DNA from: an uncultured Opitutales bacterium
GTDB taxonomy: Bacteria > Myxococcota_A > UBA9160 > SMWR01
Length of the DNA: 64,000 nucleotides
Reading direction: 5' to 3'
Assembly (NCBI GenBank): GCA_964194865.1
Contig: CAXMOC010000275.1
Coordinates: forward strand, 1,482-65,481
Shown here piece by piece: positions 12,251 to 54,276 of this stretch. How positions within the stretch are numbered: the stretch's first letter is position 1; the number at the start of each line of letters is the position of its first letter. Below the pieces are notes generated by a model. That model saw nothing but the letters and a program-made list of their open reading frames with translations. It was not told where the DNA came from and did no database searches. The position numbers and the translations under genes were made by a program.

Positions 12251-12420
12251 AGCCGCCACCGCAGCAAATCTCCGGAGCTTCATGCCCAGAAGCACCGTGA
12301 AATCCCTTTAGTTCAGTGCTCCCCTTGCCGATCTATGAGAGTCGCAGCGTTGGAACGGGCATGCGAATTGAGATTGGCCGTTCCGTCCGCCGTTTTTCCC
12401 GTTCAAGGGGGGGGGTTGGC

Positions 12421-12999
12421 GTGCAGATCCATTCGAGGAAACGAGCCGGTTTCACGCTGGTCGAGCTGATGATCGTCGTCGCCATCATCGGCGTGCTCAG
12501 CTCCATCGCGATCCCCAACTTCATCCGCTGGGCGGCGCGCTCCCGGCGCAGCGAGGCCTACGTCAACCTCGCAGCCGTTGCCCGTCTCCAGACCATTCAT
12601 CACACCGAGAAAGGCCAGTACTTCGAGGCGGCCGCCTGGCCAGACTACGTCGCAAACGGCGGGCTCGGTACGAATCGGATGGAGTGGGACGCCGCTTCCG
12701 AGGCCGCCTACAACGATCTCGGATGGCGGCCCGAAGGCGAAGTCTTCTACACCTACGAGAGCAACACCGGAGCCACCGCCTGCACCTGCGCGACCTGCTT
12801 CACGGCAACCGCCGCGGGCGACGTGGACGCCGATGGCCTTCCCTCAGCCGTCATGTACGTTCACCCCGAGAGCGATATCGACGGCAACGTGACGGGTGAA
12901 TGTCCGTCCGGCTTGTTCGGGTTTGGCACGCCCGTCGATGGCAACGGCGACGCGATCTACGACAGCGTCGCCATCCAGCGATCACTCGATGAGTTCTAG
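12421..12999 (+). CDS. type IV pilin-like protein (prepilin N-terminal cleavage/methylation domain)
   Basis: GTG at 12421 is preceded by AAGGGGGGGG. Short basic leader VQIHSRKRAG, then FTLVELMIVVAIIGVLSSIAIP (G-1, F+1, E+5). Confidence 0.8.
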   Translation: MQIHSRKRAGFTLVELMIVVAIIGVLSSIAIPNFIRWAARSRRSEAYVNLAAVARLQTIHHTEKGQYFEAAAWPDYVANGGLGTNRMEWDAASEAAYNDLGWRPEGEVFYTYESNTGATACTCATCFTATAAGDVDADGLPSAVMYVHPESDIDGNVTGECPSGLFGFGTPVDGNGDAIYDSVAIQRSLDEF

Positions 13000-13541: not shown

Positions 13542-16226
13542 CTAGGTGCCCGGGTCCTGTTCGGCGCCTCGGGCTCTTCGAACAGTCTCGTAGCTCGCGC
13601 GGGTTTCCACGAGTCTTGCGTCGTTGGCTCCCAGCTCGCGCTCGAGAATCGAGACGGACTGGCCCAGTGCCGTTTCGGCGTCGCTGAAGTTGCGCTGAGC
13701 CGCGTAGACCTGGCCGAGATCGCGCAAGAAGAGCCCGTACTCGGCGCCCTCGGCACTCGCCCCGGATCGCAACAGCGGTAGCGCTCGCTCGTAGTGGACC
13801 TGGGCGTCCGCGTAGGAGTCTCGCCGCAGGAAGCAGTCGCCGAGGTGTCGGAGGCTGCGACCGTAGAGGAGCGGATCGGGTGCGTCGTTGCGTTCGTAGA
13901 TCGAGACCGATCGCCGCAAGAGTGATTCTGCCCGCAGGTAGTCGGCGCGTTCGAGCAACAAGGCGCCGAGGCCGTCGAGGGTCTCCGCGAGGTCGGGATG
14001 ATCGGAGCCCAACGCCTCCTCGCGAATTTCCAGGGCACTTCGATAGCTTGCTTCTGCGGAGTCGACCTTGCCCAGTCGTTGATAGGCTCCAGCCAGTTCG
14101 TAGAGGATGCGTGCGACGACCGCGTGCCGCGGGCCATAGGCTTCTTCGAGAGCTTCCAACGAGCGTCGGTACAAGGGCTCTGCGCTCTGGTTGCGACCGG
14201 TGGAGCTGTGGATCGACGCCAGGTTGCCGAGTAGGCTGCCGAGTGTCCGGAGGTTGACTCGCTCATTGTTGTCGAGCAGCGCAATGGCGCGTTCGTAGTA
14301 GGGCTCCGCGGCTGCCATCTGATCTTGTTGCATCAGACAGTGCGCGAGGCCACCGAGGCTGAACGCCAGAGCGCGGGTCTCGAGTGGCTCGGTCTGTTCG
14401 AGAATGGCAATTGCTCGCTCGAAGTGGGTTTGAGATTCCTTGTGGTGCCCGAGCTCGAGATTGACCATCGCCAGACCCAGGAGTGGCTGCGCGATCTCGG
14501 GATGTTGCGTGCCGCGTTTCTCCTCGAGTTCGAGCATCTGCTGATACAGGGTGATCGCCGTCGCGTAATCTCCCAACGCGGCCCAGCTGCCTGCCTGGTT
14601 GTAGCGGGCTCGGGCGCTGTTCTCGCTGTAAGCACCGAGCTGACGCTCGAAGATCGGGATTGCGCGATCGTAGAGATCGATCGCCTCTCGATATCGCGCC
14701 TCGGCCTGACGGAGCAGTGCCAGGTTGGCGAGCGTCTCGGCGAAGCTCGATGCGTCGTCGGGAGGCGACTCTTTCCAGATTTCCAGAGCTTCCACCAGGG
14801 ATTGGCTCGCCTTTGCGTGCTCGCTGCGAGCCAGCTGAAGTGCACCCACCACGGCGAGTGTCTCTGCCACGTGGCGATGATCAGCACCGAAGGCGATTCG
14901 CTTGTAGGTCAGCGCTCTCGTCAAGACCGCGTCGGCCCGGGCGAACGCCTGCTGGGAGAGCAGCGTGTCGCCGAGGTTGTGCAAAGTCATGCCGATCTCG
15001 GGGTGCTCTGGAGCGAGTACCTCCTCCTGGATTCCCAAGGCCGTTCGGTAGGCGCCCTCCGCCCCGGCCGCATCGCCGCGCTGCTTGTGGAGCACGCCCA
15101 GGTTGTTGTACACCGCGGCCACCTTGCGGTGGCGGGGGCCGAGCAGCTTCAGGCGGATCGTCAGGGCTTGCTCGAAATGTTCCTGGGCGGTGTCCAGGTT
15201 TCGAGCGTACTGCTCGACCAGGGCGATGTTGTTGAGTGTCGCAGCGACAGAGAGGCTCTCGTAGCCGTAGGCGTTTTGCCGGATCTGCAGCGCCTTCGTG
15301 TGGAGCTCTCGCGCGTCGTCCAGGCGCCTTTGCTGAGCCCAGACCGCAGCGATTTCGTTGATCGTGACCGCCGTGTCGACGTGGTATTCGCCCAGATTGC
15401 TCTCGCGCACCTCGCGCGCTCGTTCGAGCAATCTCAATGCCTCGTCGTAACGTCCCATCACGCGATACAACGACCCCGCATTGGTCAGAACCAGAGCGGA
15501 GAGCAGGTCTTCCCAGCCTCGTTCGACGTCGAGGATCTCGAGCGTCCGAAGATAGAGTTCCTCGGCGTGGCCGTATTGACCACGGTCGTGCTGAACCACG
15601 CCGAAGTTGTGCAGGCTTTCCGCCAGGGTCAGGTCGTAGGCGCCGAGTATTTCTTCGCGGATCGAAATCGCACGCTCGTAGAGTGGTGTCGCATCATCTC
15701 GTCGCCCCTGCGCCTCATAGGAATTTGCCAGCTGCTCGAGGCTGATTGCCAGCGCGACATTGTCCTCACTCGTGTCGTTCTGTCGGATCTCGAGTGCTCG
15801 CTCGTAGAGCTGCGAGGCATGGGCGAAGTTTCCCTGCACCATCAGCACACCCGCCAGTGTCTCCGCCCCATCGGCAAAATGGGCGTTGCCAACTTCGTTT
15901 CGCCACTCGTGGATCCTGATCCAGCGCTCGAGCAGGTGCCGCGCCTCGTCGAAGCGCTGTTGCCGAACCGCCAGATGGGAAAGAGCGAAGAGGCTCTGCT
16001 CGAGCCTGGGGTCGCCTTCCCCGTAGGCTTCGGACTCTGCGAGCGCCTCTCGCCAGATCAGCTCGGCGTCCGTGGTGTCGCCCCTGCGGTAGGCCGACGT
16101 GCCGTCATCGAGTGGGCCGGGGCCGGTGCTGCCACAGCCGACGGTCAGTAGAAGGAGAAAGACCAACAGCTCCAGAATCGAGGACATCCTCGTGCGTCGG
16201 CAATCCCTCACATCGGGCCGAACCAT
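13542..16226 (-). CDS. large tetratricopeptide-repeat lipoprotein
   Basis: ATG at 16226 follows GGAGAGGTGGAG. Signal peptide with lipobox LLLTVGC. The remaining ~850 aa are back-to-back TPR_12-like repeats (A..YERAL.I.E..LG..H...A..L.NL pattern). Confidence 0.85.
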   Translation of the reverse strand: MVRPDVRDCRRTRMSSILELLVFLLLLTVGCGSTGPGPLDDGTSAYRRGDTTDAELIWREALAESEAYGEGDPRLEQSLFALSHLAVRQQRFDEARHLLERWIRIHEWRNEVGNAHFADGAETLAGVLMVQGNFAHASQLYERALEIRQNDTSEDNVALAISLEQLANSYEAQGRRDDATPLYERAISIREEILGAYDLTLAESLHNFGVVQHDRGQYGHAEELYLRTLEILDVERGWEDLLSALVLTNAGSLYRVMGRYDEALRLLERAREVRESNLGEYHVDTAVTINEIAAVWAQQRRLDDARELHTKALQIRQNAYGYESLSVAATLNNIALVEQYARNLDTAQEHFEQALTIRLKLLGPRHRKVAAVYNNLGVLHKQRGDAAGAEGAYRTALGIQEEVLAPEHPEIGMTLHNLGDTLLSQQAFARADAVLTRALTYKRIAFGADHRHVAETLAVVGALQLARSEHAKASQSLVEALEIWKESPPDDASSFAETLANLALLRQAEARYREAIDLYDRAIPIFERQLGAYSENSARARYNQAGSWAALGDYATAITLYQQMLELEEKRGTQHPEIAQPLLGLAMVNLELGHHKESQTHFERAIAILEQTEPLETRALAFSLGGLAHCLMQQDQMAAAEPYYERAIALLDNNERVNLRTLGSLLGNLASIHSSTGRNQSAEPLYRRSLEALEEAYGPRHAVVARILYELAGAYQRLGKVDSAEASYRSALEIREEALGSDHPDLAETLDGLGALLLERADYLRAESLLRRSVSIYERNDAPDPLLYGRSLRHLGDCFLRRDSYADAQVHYERALPLLRSGASAEGAEYGLFLRDLGQVYAAQRNFSDAETALGQSVSILERELGANDARLVETRASYETVRRARGAEQDPGT

Positions 16227-16453
16227 GCTCCACCTCTCCACGCGATCGGGCGCGGTGGGTCCCCGTCACCCAATTCGATTCCCCATCATCACTTTTCGGT
16301 GGCCTGCAGGCCTTCCTTAGAGTGGGATTCCCATTGCGTCGGTGCGCGGGCCGCAATTCGCGTGAAGCTGGAGGCTTCCGCTGCGGCTGGTGCGGAATCG
16401 GGGATTGGGTGGCTTGGGAGGCGCCTAGCGCCAATGGAGCCGGGGCTAGCGAT

Positions 16454-17782
16454 TCAGCGGGGGCCCGCGAAGATCCACGGGTCGCCCAGCGTGGCGAAGC
16501 GCCCCGCCGACGTAATCGAGCTGCCGTCCATGAGCCAGCCTTCGAGCGAGCCGTCGGTGTGTCGCCAGATGAGATCGTCGGCCCCATCTCCGTCGAGGTC
16601 AGCGATGCTGGCCACCTGCCATTCGAGACCCCTCGACGGCAGCGATCCCATGCTGACGAGATCCGCGCCATCGAACGTCCAGGTTGAGGAGTCGCCGAGC
16701 GAGCTGCGGAGGAGTACGTCGTCCCGCCCGTCCGCATCGAAGTCGCCCACGCGGCCGAGCTGCCAGCCGGCTCCGATCTTGTCCAGGTCGATCGATTGCC
16801 GCACGAAGCAGCGAACGCCGACCGAAGAACCGCACGTCCACGGCGGCGATCCATCCACCAGGAGTACGAGTCTCAGTTCCCCTGCAGATGTTTGTACGAG
16901 CCAATCGTCGGTTCCGTCTCCGTCGAAGTCCCCCGAGCGGAGCTGCGCGGCGGAAGAGAATCCGAACTGGTGGTCGATTACGTCGATGACCGCGGCGCCG
17001 TTGAGCAGCCATGTCGACACCGCATCGTCCAATTCGTTTCGCATCGAGAGGTCCGAGCGCCCGTCGCCGTTGTAGTCGCCGACGGAGCCGAGAACCCAGT
17101 CGGCACCCGGATCGAGGACGTCGATCCCGGAGCCGGTCACGTAGACCGCGATAGCTCCCGTCGTCTCATCTCTCCACAGGACGTCGGGAATTCCATCTCC
17201 GTTGAAGTCGCCCGAGGTGGCGTCTCCGCCGGGTGAGGTAACGAGGTATTGACGGTCGAGGATCTCCAGCCCCGCCATCGACCACACCCGAACCACTCCA
17301 GTGTCGGTATTCTGGAGGATGAGGTCCGCCCCATCCAAATTGGCATCCGGACTGGGTGTCGGATCTGGAATGGGTGGCGGCTCCGAAACGGGTGTCGGTT
17401 CCGAGGTGGGTGTGTTACCGGGAATGGGTGTCGGTTCGGCATCCGGATCCTCGACGAACCGCACCGCCTCCGAGGGCTCGGACAGGGGTCCGATCGACCG
17501 AACGCGGCGGTGTATGGATACGCCGGCGACGGTGACGACGATCGAATCTCCGAAACTTCCATGGACCGTCGCCTGTGCGTTGCTCACATAGGCGTACAAC
17601 TGCATGGCCTCGTTGTTGAAGGAGACGCGGACCAGATACTCCGCTACCGGACCGGGCGCTGGATCCCAGGCGAAGGTCGCCGACTCGACACCAATGAGTG
17701 TCGTTGTCGCGACGGCGGGCATGGGCCAAAACGCAAGAGCCAAGCCCAGGGCGGCGAAAGCCGCCGTAGGTCTATGATGCAC
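16454..17782 (-). CDS. secreted FG-GAP/VCBS repeat (beta-propeller) protein with N-terminal FnIII-like domain and Pro/Thr linker
   Basis: Signal peptide AFAALGLALAFWPMPAVA. PT-rich linker. Repeated GDFNGDGxxDxLWR-type Ca-binding FG-GAP motifs, at least 5 copies. Confidence 0.8.
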   Translation of the reverse strand: MHHRPTAAFAALGLALAFWPMPAVATTTLIGVESATFAWDPAPGPVAEYLVRVSFNNEAMQLYAYVSNAQATVHGSFGDSIVVTVAGVSIHRRVRSIGPLSEPSEAVRFVEDPDAEPTPIPGNTPTSEPTPVSEPPPIPDPTPSPDANLDGADLILQNTDTGVVRVWSMAGLEILDRQYLVTSPGGDATSGDFNGDGIPDVLWRDETTGAIAVYVTGSGIDVLDPGADWVLGSVGDYNGDGRSDLSMRNELDDAVSTWLLNGAAVIDVIDHQFGFSSAAQLRSGDFDGDGTDDWLVQTSAGELRLVLLVDGSPPWTCGSSVGVRCFVRQSIDLDKIGAGWQLGRVGDFDADGRDDVLLRSSLGDSSTWTFDGADLVSMGSLPSRGLEWQVASIADLDGDGADDLIWRHTDGSLEGWLMDGSSITSAGRFATLGDPWIFAGPR

Positions 17783-17912
17783 GCTTGGTTCCCCCAGAAA
17801 GCCCGTGAAGTCACGCGGCGCAGATCATCCACGAGTTAGGGTACGCGGTAAGTGACCGCCGTCACATGCCTGTGGCAAGACCCAATACAAAACACTGTTT
17901 TGAAATTTCTCC

Positions 17913-18105
17913 GTTTCCCGTCGGTGGAATCCCCGTTTCCGGCCCGAGGAATGCCCGTTCCCGTCGGAGAGACGCCTGTTTCCCGTCTGAGGCATGCCTG
18001 CTCTCCGTCGGGCAGGTACCCGTTTCCGTCGGAGGATGCCTGTTTTCCGTCGGGGAGGCGCTCATTTCCCGTCGGAGGAGTGCCCGTTTCCGTCGGAGAG
18101 TGGCC
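17913..18105. repeat. array of nine tandem imperfect 20-22 bp repeats (consensus about GTTTCCCGTCGGAGGNNTGCCC)
   Basis: Read directly. Units start at 17913, 17935, 17957, 17978, 18000, 18022, 18042, 18064 and 18086. Seven of nine contain CCGTCGG. Confidence 0.9.
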
Positions 18106-18286
18106 GCGGCGGGCCTTCGGAAGGCGCCGCCCAAGCCGATCGGCTCTGGACGGTTGGTCACGCGAAACCTCGCAGTGTCGATCGGCCTCACGGCCGCGGA
18201 GCTCCGGAGAGTGTTCGATCTGGGCCCGGAGCGGGGTTGGGCTCGAAAACCCAGGCCTCGAGGCGTCTGCTAGCCTGCGCCCGCCC

Positions 18287-20092
18287 ATGAGACAGCCGCG
18301 AAAAGAGCTCCGGAACCTCGCGATCATCGCGCACGTCGACCACGGCAAGACCACCCTCTTGGATGGGCTCTTGCGCCAGTCGGGTGCTTTTCGCCTCCAG
18401 CAGGAGGTGGTCGAGCGCGTGATGGACAGCGAGGACCTCGAGCGGGAGCGAGGAATCACCATCCACTCCAAGGACACCTCGATCGCCTTCGAGGGGGTTC
18501 GCATCCACCTGGTAGATACCCCCGGGCACGCCGATTTCGGTGGAGAGGTCGAGCGCGTACTTGGAATGGTGGATGCCGTGCTGCTGTTGGTAGACGCAGT
18601 TGAGGGGGTTATGCCACAAACGCGCTTCGTGGTTTCGAAGGCGTTGGAGCACGGCTTGCGCCCGCTGCTGGTGGTCAACAAGGTGGATCGCCCCGAGCAG
18701 CGTTCGAACGAAGTGATCAACGAGGTCTTCGATCTGCTCGTCGATCTCGGGGCCAACGACGAGCAGCTCGATTTTCCGGTCATTTTCGCGTCTGCCAAAG
18801 ATGGGACCGCGACGCGTTCGCTCGACGAGCCGGGCGTGGATCTGCGACCGCTGCTCGAAGCCATCCTCGAATTCGCACCCCCGCCGATGGTCGACAGCGA
18901 CGCCTCGCTGCAGTTCCAGGCCGTCACGCTCGGCTACGACGACTACGTGGGCCGCCTGGTGATTGGGCGGGTGGTGCGGGGCAGACTGGTCCGCGGCGCC
19001 CGGTTGGTGCGAATTCCGGAGACCGGGCTGCCCCAATCGTTCCGGCTGACGAAGTTGTTCGGGGCGCGGGGCCTGGAGCGAGCCGAACTCGAGATTGCGG
19101 AAGCAGGAGACATCGCCGTCATCGCCGGAATCGACACGATCGACATCGGCGACACGGTTGCGGAGCCCGACGCGCCAGAGCCGCTGGAGCGCATCGCCGT
19201 CGATCCGCCCACCGTTCGGGTGCGATTCTCGGTCAACAATTCGCCGTTTTCGGGTCAGGAAGGGCGTTTTGTGACCAGCCGCCAGGTCGGCGAGCGGCTG
19301 GCCAGGGAGGCGCTCGGAAATGTTTCGATTCGCCTGGAAAGTTCGGAGCTGCGCGACACCTTCATCGTCGCCGGACGCGGAGAGCTGCTGATCGCAGTGT
19401 TGATCGAAACCTTGCGACGGGAGGGGTTCGAATTCAGCGTGTCGAGACCCGAGATCATCCAACGGGAAATCGGCGGAAGGTCCTGCGAGCCGGTCGAGGA
19501 CGTCGTGATCGAGGTTCCGACGATCTATGCGGGTGTCGTCTTGGAGAAGCTCGGTACGCGCAAGGGGCGGATGACGTCGATGGAGCATCGATCCGACAGC
19601 GTGCGGCTGCTCTTTACGGTTCCGAGTCGCGGTCTGTTCGGCTACCGAAGCGAGTTTCTATCCGACACAAGAGGCGACGGAATTCTGCACCGAACCGTGA
19701 GTGGATACGAGCCCTGGGCGGGAGAGCTTTCACACCGGGGTTTCGGTGCGGTGGTTTCGACCTCGAACGGGAAGACCACGCCCTACAGCCTGTATCACAT
19801 CCAGGAGCGCGCCTCGCTCTTCGTCGGCCCGAGTGTGCCGGTCTACGAGGGACAGATCATCGGAGAAACCCGCAGGCCACGCGATCTGAACGTCAACGCC
19901 GTTCGCCCCAAGAAGCTGACCAACGTTCGCGCAGCCGGCAAGGACGAGGCCACCGTACTTACCCCGGCGCGCCCGGTGAGCATCGAGTGGGCGCTCGAGT
20001 GGATGGAAGACGATGAGTTGCTCGAGGTGACCCCCAAGTCGCTTCGACTGCGCAAGCGCATCCTCCAGGCCAACCTGCGCAAACGCGCCTGA
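18287..20092 (+). CDS. typA: translational GTPase TypA/BipA
   Basis: ATG at 18287 gives MRQPRKELRNLAIIAHVDHGKTTL (G1), DTPGHADF (G3), NKVDR (G4). About 600 aa, typical for BipA. The listed 746-aa ORF is extended through the non-coding repeat array. Confidence 0.92.
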   Translation: MRQPRKELRNLAIIAHVDHGKTTLLDGLLRQSGAFRLQQEVVERVMDSEDLERERGITIHSKDTSIAFEGVRIHLVDTPGHADFGGEVERVLGMVDAVLLLVDAVEGVMPQTRFVVSKALEHGLRPLLVVNKVDRPEQRSNEVINEVFDLLVDLGANDEQLDFPVIFASAKDGTATRSLDEPGVDLRPLLEAILEFAPPPMVDSDASLQFQAVTLGYDDYVGRLVIGRVVRGRLVRGARLVRIPETGLPQSFRLTKLFGARGLERAELEIAEAGDIAVIAGIDTIDIGDTVAEPDAPEPLERIAVDPPTVRVRFSVNNSPFSGQEGRFVTSRQVGERLAREALGNVSIRLESSELRDTFIVAGRGELLIAVLIETLRREGFEFSVSRPEIIQREIGGRSCEPVEDVVIEVPTIYAGVVLEKLGTRKGRMTSMEHRSDSVRLLFTVPSRGLFGYRSEFLSDTRGDGILHRTVSGYEPWAGELSHRGFGAVVSTSNGKTTPYSLYHIQERASLFVGPSVPVYEGQIIGETRRPRDLNVNAVRPKKLTNVRAAGKDEATVLTPARPVSIEWALEWMEDDELLEVTPKSLRLRKRILQANLRKRA

Positions 20093-53346: not shown

Positions 53347-54276
53347 ATGGCGCGACGTTCCGTCGGATTCCCGCTAACGCTGGGATTCATCTTGGTCATC
53401 CTGGCCGCGGTACTCGCCGTCGCCTACTGGGTTCTGGTACTGGACGATGTCGGCCCGGTTGGCCCGGACAGCCTGACGGGGCTCGAGTGGGTACTGCTGG
53501 TGCTGGGCACCGCCTTTTTCGTCCTGATCATCGTGGGGCTGGGGTGGCTCTGCGCCTGGCTGGTGCGAGAGATGCGGCTGAATCAGCGTCAGCGCGCATT
53601 TCTGGATGCCGTCACTCACGAGATGAAGACGCCCCTCGCATCCCTGCGCCTCTACGTCGAGACCCTGGTGAGGCACGATCCAGAAAGCGAGCGGCGGCGC
53701 GAGTTTCTCGACCGCATGGCCGAGGATCTAGAGCGCCTCGATCGAACCGTGGACCAGGTTCTGGCAGCGGCCCGCGCAGAGGAACCCGGCCGCCGGGCCA
53801 AGCTCGAGCGGGTCGCTCTGCGCGACATCCTGGTGCCGTGCATCGACGAGATTCGGAACCGGCACGCTCTGCCCGCGGAAGCGGTTCACCTCGACACCAA
53901 CGAAAATCCGCTTGTGCGAGCCGATCCGGGAGAGCTTGCGGTGGTGTTTCGCAACCTGCTCGAGAACGCTGTGAAGTACTCCGAGGCGCCCGTCGATGTC
54001 GGGGTTGCCATTGCGGGCCACCACGATGGGCGTGTTTCGGTGGACATCTCCGACCGCGGCATCGGGATTCCGGCGGGCGAGCTGCGGAAGATCTTCCAGC
54101 GCTTCCACCGCGCGGGTCGCGACGTGCAGCGGACCGCTGCGGGCCTCGGCCTCGGCTTGTTCATCGTCAGGAATCTGGTTCGCCGGCAGGGCGGGCGGGT
54201 GGTTGCGCGCAGCGCGGGCTGGGGCGAGGGCAGTCGATTTGTCGTGACTCTGCGCGCAGCTGGTCCGGCGTTGTAG
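53347..54276 (+). CDS. sensor histidine kinase (two TM helices, no extracytoplasmic or HAMP/PAS domain)
   Basis: H-box THEMKTPL, N-box NLLENAVKYS, G1 DRGIGIP, G2 GLGLGLF. Confidence 0.85.
   Translation: MARRSVGFPLTLGFILVILAAVLAVAYWVLVLDDVGPVGPDSLTGLEWVLLVLGTAFFVLIIVGLGWLCAWLVREMRLNQRQRAFLDAVTHEMKTPLASLRLYVETLVRHDPESERRREFLDRMAEDLERLDRTVDQVLAAARAEEPGRRAKLERVALRDILVPCIDEIRNRHALPAEAVHLDTNENPLVRADPGELAVVFRNLLENAVKYSEAPVDVGVAIAGHHDGRVSVDISDRGIGIPAGELRKIFQRFHRAGRDVQRTAAGLGLGLFIVRNLVRRQGGRVVARSAGWGEGSRFVVTLRAAGPAL

Follow-up and report, generated by a model that had tools for sequence, protein, structure and literature searches.

We analyzed a stretch of 64,000 nucleotides (the window; G+C content 64.7%) from contig CAXMOC010000275.1 of an uncultured bacterium, assigned to Myxococcota by the named sources of the nearest TypA proteins. 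In the window, a tandem array of nine head-to-tail units (17913-18105, 193 bp, no strand assigned) lies between two divergent genes. On its left, on the minus strand, are the gene for a secreted FG-GAP repeat protein of 442 amino acids (aa) (16454-17782, GTG start at 17782) and, next after it, the gene for an 899-aa TPR protein (13542-16241). On its right, on the plus strand, is typA/bipA (18287-20092, ATG at 18287), which encodes a translational GTPase. These are the neighbours that an earlier note, made from the letters of the sequence, had named, and its distances are correct, the array being separated from the GTG at 17782 by 131 bp and from the typA ATG by 182 bp. The genes flanking the array encode the FG-GAP, TPR, and TypA proteins, a glyoxalase, and a 125-aa protein that matches no family; genes for a regulator, rep, par, a transposase, or an integrase are not found near it.

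The array is real, as judged from the sequence, from Tandem Repeats Finder, and from a second strain, and it is non-coding and lineage-specific. Joined end to end, the nine 20-22 bp units read out in the earlier note reproduce exactly window positions 17913-18105; in order they measure 22, 22, 21, 22, 22, 20, 22, 22, and 20 bp (mean 193/9 = 21.4 bp), and their consensus is GTTTCC(C)GTCGGAGGAATGCCC. Tandem Repeats Finder reports 17911-18098 with a period of 22, 8.7 copies, 68% matches, and a score of 141, and further periods of 43 (75% matches) and 64 (79% matches). The better fit of period 64 than of period 22 indicates a three-unit higher-order repeat, and the layout approximates three blocks of ~64 bp with three units each. 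Units 3, 6, and 9 are of one short subtype (pairwise identity 0.62-0.81), which together with the period of 64 suggests that a single unit grew into a block of three, and the block then into three blocks. The units have diverged from one another by ~30%. A search with the 16-mer consensus, allowing three or fewer mismatches, returned 8 matches in the window, compared with 1.14 +/- 1.02 in shuffled sequences, of which 0/100 reached 8; five of the eight matches fall inside the array.

Each unit is built around a short dyad, CCGTCGG, which seven of the nine retain, as the earlier note had stated. The seven cores start at 17918 (17918-17924), 17961, 18005, 18026, 18047, 18069, and 18090, with core-to-core spacings of 43, 44, 21, 21, 22, and 21 bp. 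A mean of 21.4 bp per unit bears out the claimed spacing of about two helical turns. An intact 9-bp palindrome, TCCG-T-CGGA, is present in unit 6 (18025-18033) and in unit 9 (18089-18097). In the first 12 alignment columns (GTTTCCCGTCGG, the 5' half of the unit), 14 of 108 cells mismatch, compared with 31 of 90 in the other 10 columns. A permutation test on the contiguity of the conserved columns, with units that are non-independent, gave p = 0.05 for a 12-column window and p = 0.11 when window sizes were scanned; the better conservation of the 5' half is suggestive, not decisive.

The second full-length member of the TypA cluster of the window comes from a contig of JGI sample 3300038548 (L413), which is collinear with the window. 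The two TypA proteins are identical at 594 of 601 positions (99%), making the strains conspecific. L413 has the same nine units in the same place (L413 2106-2300), and indels between the two strains break the reading frame. Since, in addition, the TypA start MRQPRKEL is kept in all relatives, the array is non-coding, in agreement with the earlier note. Over its 193 bp it differs between the strains by nine substitutions (9/193 = 4.7%) and one 1-bp indel, while the left flank differs by 4 in 130 bp and the right flank by 4 in 181 bp. In the right flank, on the typA side of the array, L413 also has an insertion of 22 bp made up of GGGCCGGA-like repeats (window 18220/18221; L413 ~2421-2442). Four-fold synonymous sites of seven genes common to the window and L413 differ at 54/1298 (4.2%), so that the array, taken whole, evolves about as fast as neutral sites do (Fisher p = 0.70). 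All 10 differences lie in the spacers and none in the seven intact cores, which make up 49 of the 193 nt (P ~0.05, hand calculation), and unit 8 of L413 is a third perfect TCCGTCGGA.

Array copy number was compared in these two strains. A further contig, L001 (98%-identical TypA, JGI 3300041080), breaks off within the GC-rich spacer, 59 bp before the ATG and short of the array. Nine units in both strains at ~4% neutral divergence mean that the array is not a hypervariable variable-number tandem repeat (VNTR), a class defined by near-identical units and copy-number polymorphism; here the units have 68% matches. The outcome that the earlier note had named as fatal to a regulatory array, a generic repetitive extragenic palindrome (REP) or a freely varying VNTR, is likewise not what we see, the array being a single locus within the 64 kb.

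We compared the locus with relatives at 83-87% TypA identity, three of which have the same FG-GAP neighbour (L002, L125, and L126) and two another neighbour (L003 and L127). The synteny of the genes for the FG-GAP protein, TypA, the glyoxalase, and the 125-aa protein is kept in relatives without the array. An ungapped position weight matrix search for the box in the intergenic regions of the relatives found no significant match, with none in L002, L126, and L127 and one weak match in L003; this search does not support the gapped look-alikes of the box that had been noticed by eye in L002 and L003.

A search with the fast-evolving FG-GAP protein identified a nearer outgroup, L415 (SRR21285596), whose FG-GAP protein (match P0125) is 60% identical to that of the window; in the same comparison L413 stands at 88% and the L125 clade at 41%. 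Its intergenic region of 179 bp is without the array and contains two exact copies of TCCG-T-CGGA (TCCGTCGGA, CTCCGTCGGA), 43 bp or four helical turns apart, with which the palindrome of unit 6 is identical. These two TCCGTCGGA sites are a large excess over background: there is none in the other 4.1 kb of the L415 contig, and outside its own intergenic region the window has one in 63.5 kb, where ~0.8 are expected from base composition. The site is not detectable in the more remote L002 and L126. The single copy of the window outside the intergenic region (53359-53367) lies 12 nt inside a membrane-protein open reading frame (ATG 53347) and ~70 bp from the start of a divergent gene, and it is within chance expectation (~0.8 per 64 kb).

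The intergenic regions of the window and L415 can be aligned collinearly through, in order, the Shine-Dalgarno region, a block ATCATCCACGAGT, a GTGA-N6-TCAC palindrome, site A, an AAC-N3-GTT/TGAAA block, and site B. Site B of L415 falls exactly at the start of the array, after a conserved CTGTTYTGAAA block, and site A falls opposite GCCTGTGGCAAG (17868-17879), a decayed copy of the palindrome that matches site A (CTCCGTCGGAAG) at 7/12 positions. The AAC-N3-GTT/TGAAA block is the anchor for the positional homology of the array with site B. Its AAC-N3-GTT core and the following TGAAA are kept in L413 and L415, with partial conservation in L002 and L126, and the core is the centre of an AT-rich, perfect 15-bp palindrome, CAAAAC-ACT-GTTTTG (17888-17902), directly left of the array in the sole AT-rich stretch of the intergenic region. 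This 15-bp palindrome may itself act in regulation, as a third site or as part of a promoter. The positional homology with site B argues that the array is an amplification in situ of a resident palindrome and not an insertion, and since the 43 bp between the L415 sites equal two array units, the helical phase of the sites was kept through the amplification.

This origin bears on a reading of the array as replicon iterons or a centromere, or as transposase-binding repeats at the end, or in a remnant, of a Mu/Tn7-like element, which we consider highly improbable. Plasmid iterons, such as the seven 22-bp repeats of the R6K gamma origin and those of pSC101, RK2, P1, and F, are tandem direct repeats of ~22 bp with a conserved and a variable part and an adjoining AT-rich segment. 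The array shares all of this, and its nine units also fit the usual pattern of 17-22 bp direct repeats at ~22 bp spacing. Mu/Tn7-type ends likewise consist of ~22-bp direct repeats, and a metagenomic array with the same TTTCCGTCGG core (L134) adjoins a Mu-type transposase gene. However, the array has no gene for rep, par, a transposase, or an integrase beside it and no DnaA-box or origin context, and searches of 72,556 plasmid and 50,697 phage records found nothing similar; cumulative GC skew climbs steadily over 1-64000 with no turn at 18 kb. The neighbourhood is a chromosomal, housekeeping one whose synteny does not depend on the array. We found no terminal inverted repeats, element boundaries, or notable flanking inverted repeats. 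The 64-kb window contains neither a second copy of the unit nor a repeat of any stretch of the intergenic region, and the homology with the single L415 site speaks for growth in place. The earlier note had likened the array to iterons or cooperative operator arrays; the comparison with operators is truly strengthened by the recurrence of the same palindrome as two single sites in the promoter region of L415, whereas the plasmid or replication sense of iteron is not supported.

Candidate promoters can be placed on both sides. For the FG-GAP/TPR operon, conservation and geometry point to a -10 hexamer GATGAT (17824-17829, minus strand) within the conserved block ATCATCCACGAGT. Upstream of it lies the GTGA-N6-TCAC palindrome, a CRP/FNR-type AAGTGAC-N4-GTCACAT (17850-17867), the arms of which are conserved in the window, L413, L415, L002, L125, and L126, with a variable spacer. 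L003 and L127, in which a different gene lies upstream of typA, lack this palindrome, and in the window, L413, L415, and L002 its centre is at -41.5 from the putative FG-GAP start, which is class-II activator geometry. On the other side, an extended -10-like element TGCTAGCCT (18268-18276, plus strand) lies 10 nt before the typA ATG, and the sequence TGCTAGYYT is found 9-10 nt ahead of the ATG in all seven orthologous loci. These loci have neither a Shine-Dalgarno sequence before typA nor a recognisable -35, and the typA mRNA is probably near-leaderless and made from an extended -10 promoter. A sigma-54 promoter with enhancer-binding sites was also considered and dropped, as no GG-N10-GC was seen by eye in the conserved typA-proximal block.

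On these predicted starts, site B of L415 is centred at about -42 from that of typA and site A at about -56 from that of the FG-GAP gene. Both are typical operator or activator positions, and the layout would suit an operator pair for a dimeric DNA-binding protein, the palindrome being a likely protein-binding site. The array of the window extends from -96 to -288 relative to the FG-GAP start and from -178 to -370 relative to that of typA. A GC-rich stretch of ~150 bp (18106-18260) between the array and the typA promoter has no counterpart in L415 or L002, and this spacer is generally slippage-prone and fast-evolving. Abutting the last unit is a GC-rich stem-loop GGCGGGCCUUCGGAAGGCGCCGCC (18108-18131), with a CUUCGG-type loop and no U-tract after it, which L413 has in identical form and L415 and L002 lack. 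The stem-loop is loosely like unit 7 (GGAGGCGC) and could be a tenth, rearranged unit.

The promoter geometry also bears on the proposal that the array is transcribed and acts as RNA, whether as a CsrA/RsmA-type GGA sponge, as a long and structured leader of typA, or, for the FG-GAP operon, as an antisense or 5' element. We consider this very unlikely. As the earlier note had observed in suggesting a CsrB/RsmZ-like sponge or a typA leader, GGA occurs in seven of the nine units, a feature shared with the GGA-containing repeats of CsrB, RsmY, and RsmZ; moreover, the GC-rich hairpin abuts the 3' end of the array on the plus strand, and the sub-region 18022-18105 folds on that strand with z = -2.7. 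Yet the fold of the whole region is no better than that of shuffled sequences (z = -1.3 on the plus strand, -0.6 on the minus strand), and the stability of 18022-18105 comes from pairing between neighbouring palindromic cores, as expected of any tandem palindrome array. No Rfam family reached its gathering score and there was no relevant covariance-model match at E <= 10, and consensus scans covering sigma-70-type promoters and U-tract terminators matched neither. The GGA motifs are not in conserved hairpin loops, and the conserved part of the unit is a DNA palindrome and not GGA, as is the progenitor of the array at -42 of the typA promoter. Finally, the conserved extended -10-like element implies a near-leaderless typA mRNA that would start ~180 bp downstream of the array. 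Neither form of the earlier suggestion is supported.

The comparison with L415 and L413 gives good support to a history in which the array arose by lineage-specific tandem amplification, in situ, of an operator-like palindrome of the FG-GAP/typA divergent promoter region. The ancestral state would have been as in L415, with two TCCG-T-CGGA sites 43 bp apart in an intergenic region of 179 bp. In the lineage of the window, the copy on the FG-GAP side would have decayed, while the copy on the typA side would have been duplicated together with ~12 flanking bp by slippage or unequal exchange, growing first to a three-unit block of ~64 bp and then to nine units. The ~150 bp of new GC-rich sequence would have pushed the array off the typA core promoter. 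The outcome is a homotypic cluster of nine operator-derived sites, 21-22 bp apart, on roughly the same face of the helix and between both core promoters. The putative regulator of the ancestral palindrome could bind such a cluster cooperatively, and the cluster might then serve as an upstream high-avidity platform or as a local decoy that modulates one or both promoters.

That a putative dimeric regulator still binds the cluster, cooperatively or as a decoy, is to us the likeliest of the readings, at a little under even confidence. We count in favour of function that the cores are the best-conserved part of the array, both within it and between the strains, that the phasing is retained, and that the progenitor resembles a genuine operator pair. 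A more specific proposal is that the nine-fold multiplication of the operator and its upstream shift by ~150 bp rewired an ancestral two-operator switch of typA and the secreted FG-GAP/TPR operon, with the regulator being locally concentrated or titrated; this we regard as unlikely.

Several observations weigh against continued function of the array. It is absent from L002, L125, L126, L003, and L127 (intergenic regions of 264-370 bp) as well as from L415, and is therefore dispensable for both promoters; no regulator gene is adjacent; and a regulon search showed no enrichment of the box elsewhere in the 64-kb window (17 matches, compared with 13.6 +/- 3.2 in shuffled sequences). The cores of unit 2 (CCGGCCCG) and unit 4 (CCGTCTG) are broken in both the window and L413, and the full 9-bp palindrome is kept in only 2-3 of the nine units. 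The divergence of the array does not differ from that of four-fold sites, the conservation of the cores has marginal statistical support (p ~0.05-0.1), some of it post hoc, the promoter positions are read only from motifs, and the array is no longer promoter-proximal in the canonical sense.

Many of these same points fit the main rival, in which the array was amplified as described and is now a functionless, decaying minisatellite in a slippage-prone, GC-rich spacer. We consider such a neutral relic a real possibility, although one clearly below even. It would account for the neutral-like rate, the confinement to one species, the two broken cores, and the lack of a regulon signal in 64 kb, and units that are ~30% diverged may be too different to slip, which would explain the stable copy number. 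Other slippage products occur nearby, namely the GGGCCGGA-type 22-bp insertion in L413 and an 18-bp repeat in the FG-GAP gene with 5 versus 2 copies. The pairing of neighbouring palindromic cores (z = -2.7 for the sub-region) would favour slipped structures, and in viral contigs control boxes are as frequent in tandem as the real one (real 61; controls 64 and >=120). A relic would not, however, be expected to keep its CCGTCGG cores best of all parts of the units and untouched between strains, nor to retain two-turn phasing despite changes of unit length between 20 and 22 bp, and the progenitor site looks functional in the outgroup L415.

The array is of a known kind, whether classed as tandem operator-derived repeats or as an intergenic minisatellite; its unit and its progenitor site are undescribed. 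The earlier note knew of no described element with this unit, and we found no match in Rfam, in the plasmid and phage records, or in the literature, where the motif returned only primers and unrelated sequences and a search by topic gave nothing on such arrays in myxobacteria. Chromosomal titration loci and homotypic operator clusters are exemplified by Escherichia coli datA with its DnaA boxes and by multi-operator arrays that dimeric repressors bind cooperatively. As in these systems, several copies of a short dyad site lie in non-coding DNA with helical-turn phasing, near but not on core promoters, and the progenitor sites are at operator-like positions (-42 and -56) in L415. In contrast to the sites of datA-type loci, which are independently placed, the copies here arose recently and head to tail, as a minisatellite that shows a higher-order repeat of 64 bp; moreover, the array is confined to one species-level lineage and its binding protein is putative. 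Bacterial intergenic minisatellites and VNTRs include the mycobacterial MIRU-type loci and the promoter tandem repeats of contingency genes. Like them, the array is an intergenic, lineage-specific product of slippage or unequal exchange with a neutral-like overall rate. It differs from them in being a single locus as far as the 64 kb show, in its ~30% unit divergence, in its equal copy number in two strains, and in its derivation from a palindromic cis-element that can be identified.

Provided that a protein still binds the copies, the locus would be a dated, stepwise example of a homotypic binding-site cluster acquired by tandem duplication in a bacterial promoter region, the three steps being a pair of single sites in the outgroup, nine sites in phase in the lineage of the window, and the same nine in a second strain. 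It also points to a candidate operator, a palindrome, ahead of typA/bipA; the translational GTPase encoded there is stress-related, and the control of its transcription is poorly known. Should the decoy or landing-pad function be real, cis-regulatory evolution by minisatellite formation would have been caught in the act, and TCCG-T-CGGA and its protein would be a new regulator-operator pair in Myxococcota. In the absence of binding, the array is a lineage-specific minisatellite of an ordinary sort that would mainly document the seeding of such arrays by palindromic operators.

Arrays with the same core occur elsewhere. Scanning a genome collection for three CCGTCGG cores returned at least 120 loci, mostly actinobacterial coding repeats, and this pattern is unspecific. 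The stricter pattern CCGTCGG-N10-13-TTYCCGTCGG-N10-13-TTYCCGTCGG gave 38 loci in a metagenome collection, none of them orthologous and most of them period-21 arrays inside long open reading frames that encode heptad repeats; the collection evidently lacks the population studied here, as the L413 array fits the pattern yet was not returned. Non-coding TTYCCGTCGG arrays with periods of 11-23 bp lie on unrelated GC-rich metagenome contigs. The one on L134 (56-255) is directly upstream of the Mu-type transposase and possibly consists of transposase-binding end repeats, the one on L130 (664-747) is in a divergent intergenic region between genes for a Ser/Thr kinase and a fatty-acid hydroxylase, and the one on L135 (11317-11432) follows a glpD-like DAO gene 59% identical to that of the window, without typA synteny. 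Further examples are on L152 (5333-5548) and on the phage contig L163 (7991-8197), the latter after the portal gene. One of the non-coding metagenome arrays with the core follows a radical-SAM gene. We considered a universal TTYCCGTCGG array family and dropped it: with a two-box tandem pattern, viral contigs had 61 loci for the real box, 64 for the reversed box, and at least 120 for the shuffled box, and with control boxes at least as frequent as the real one there is no evidence for a cross-taxon family defined by the core.

A Neisseria-type DNA-uptake sequence was also considered, as unit 4 contains CCGTCTGA, and was rejected because the motif is not dispersed in the window. What had also prompted the idea was a type IV pilin-like protein encoded at 12301-12999, which carries an N-terminal methylation motif and whose match to the ComP DNA-uptake-sequence receptor domain (ComP_DUS) stays below threshold (21 bits, cut-off 27.3).

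The FG-GAP gene contains a tandem repeat of its own, an in-frame 18-bp unit (ATCCGGAATGGGTGTCGG on the plus strand) at 17345-17434 that encodes a Pro/Thr/Glu-rich linker. It has five copies in the window and two in L413 (1591-1626), so that copy number differs between the strains for this coding repeat and is the same for the 22-bp intergenic array. In the region common to both, no gene has diverged more than the FG-GAP gene (7.5% of four-fold sites, 88% protein identity). A structurally analogous array, non-coding and unrelated in sequence, is found in a Verrucomicrobiota metagenome-assembled genome (CAUJJC010000364.1; L071 3385-3605), where eleven tandem 22-bp units GGTCACATCCCRTCGGATGAAG each carry a dyad CATCC-N4-GGATG.

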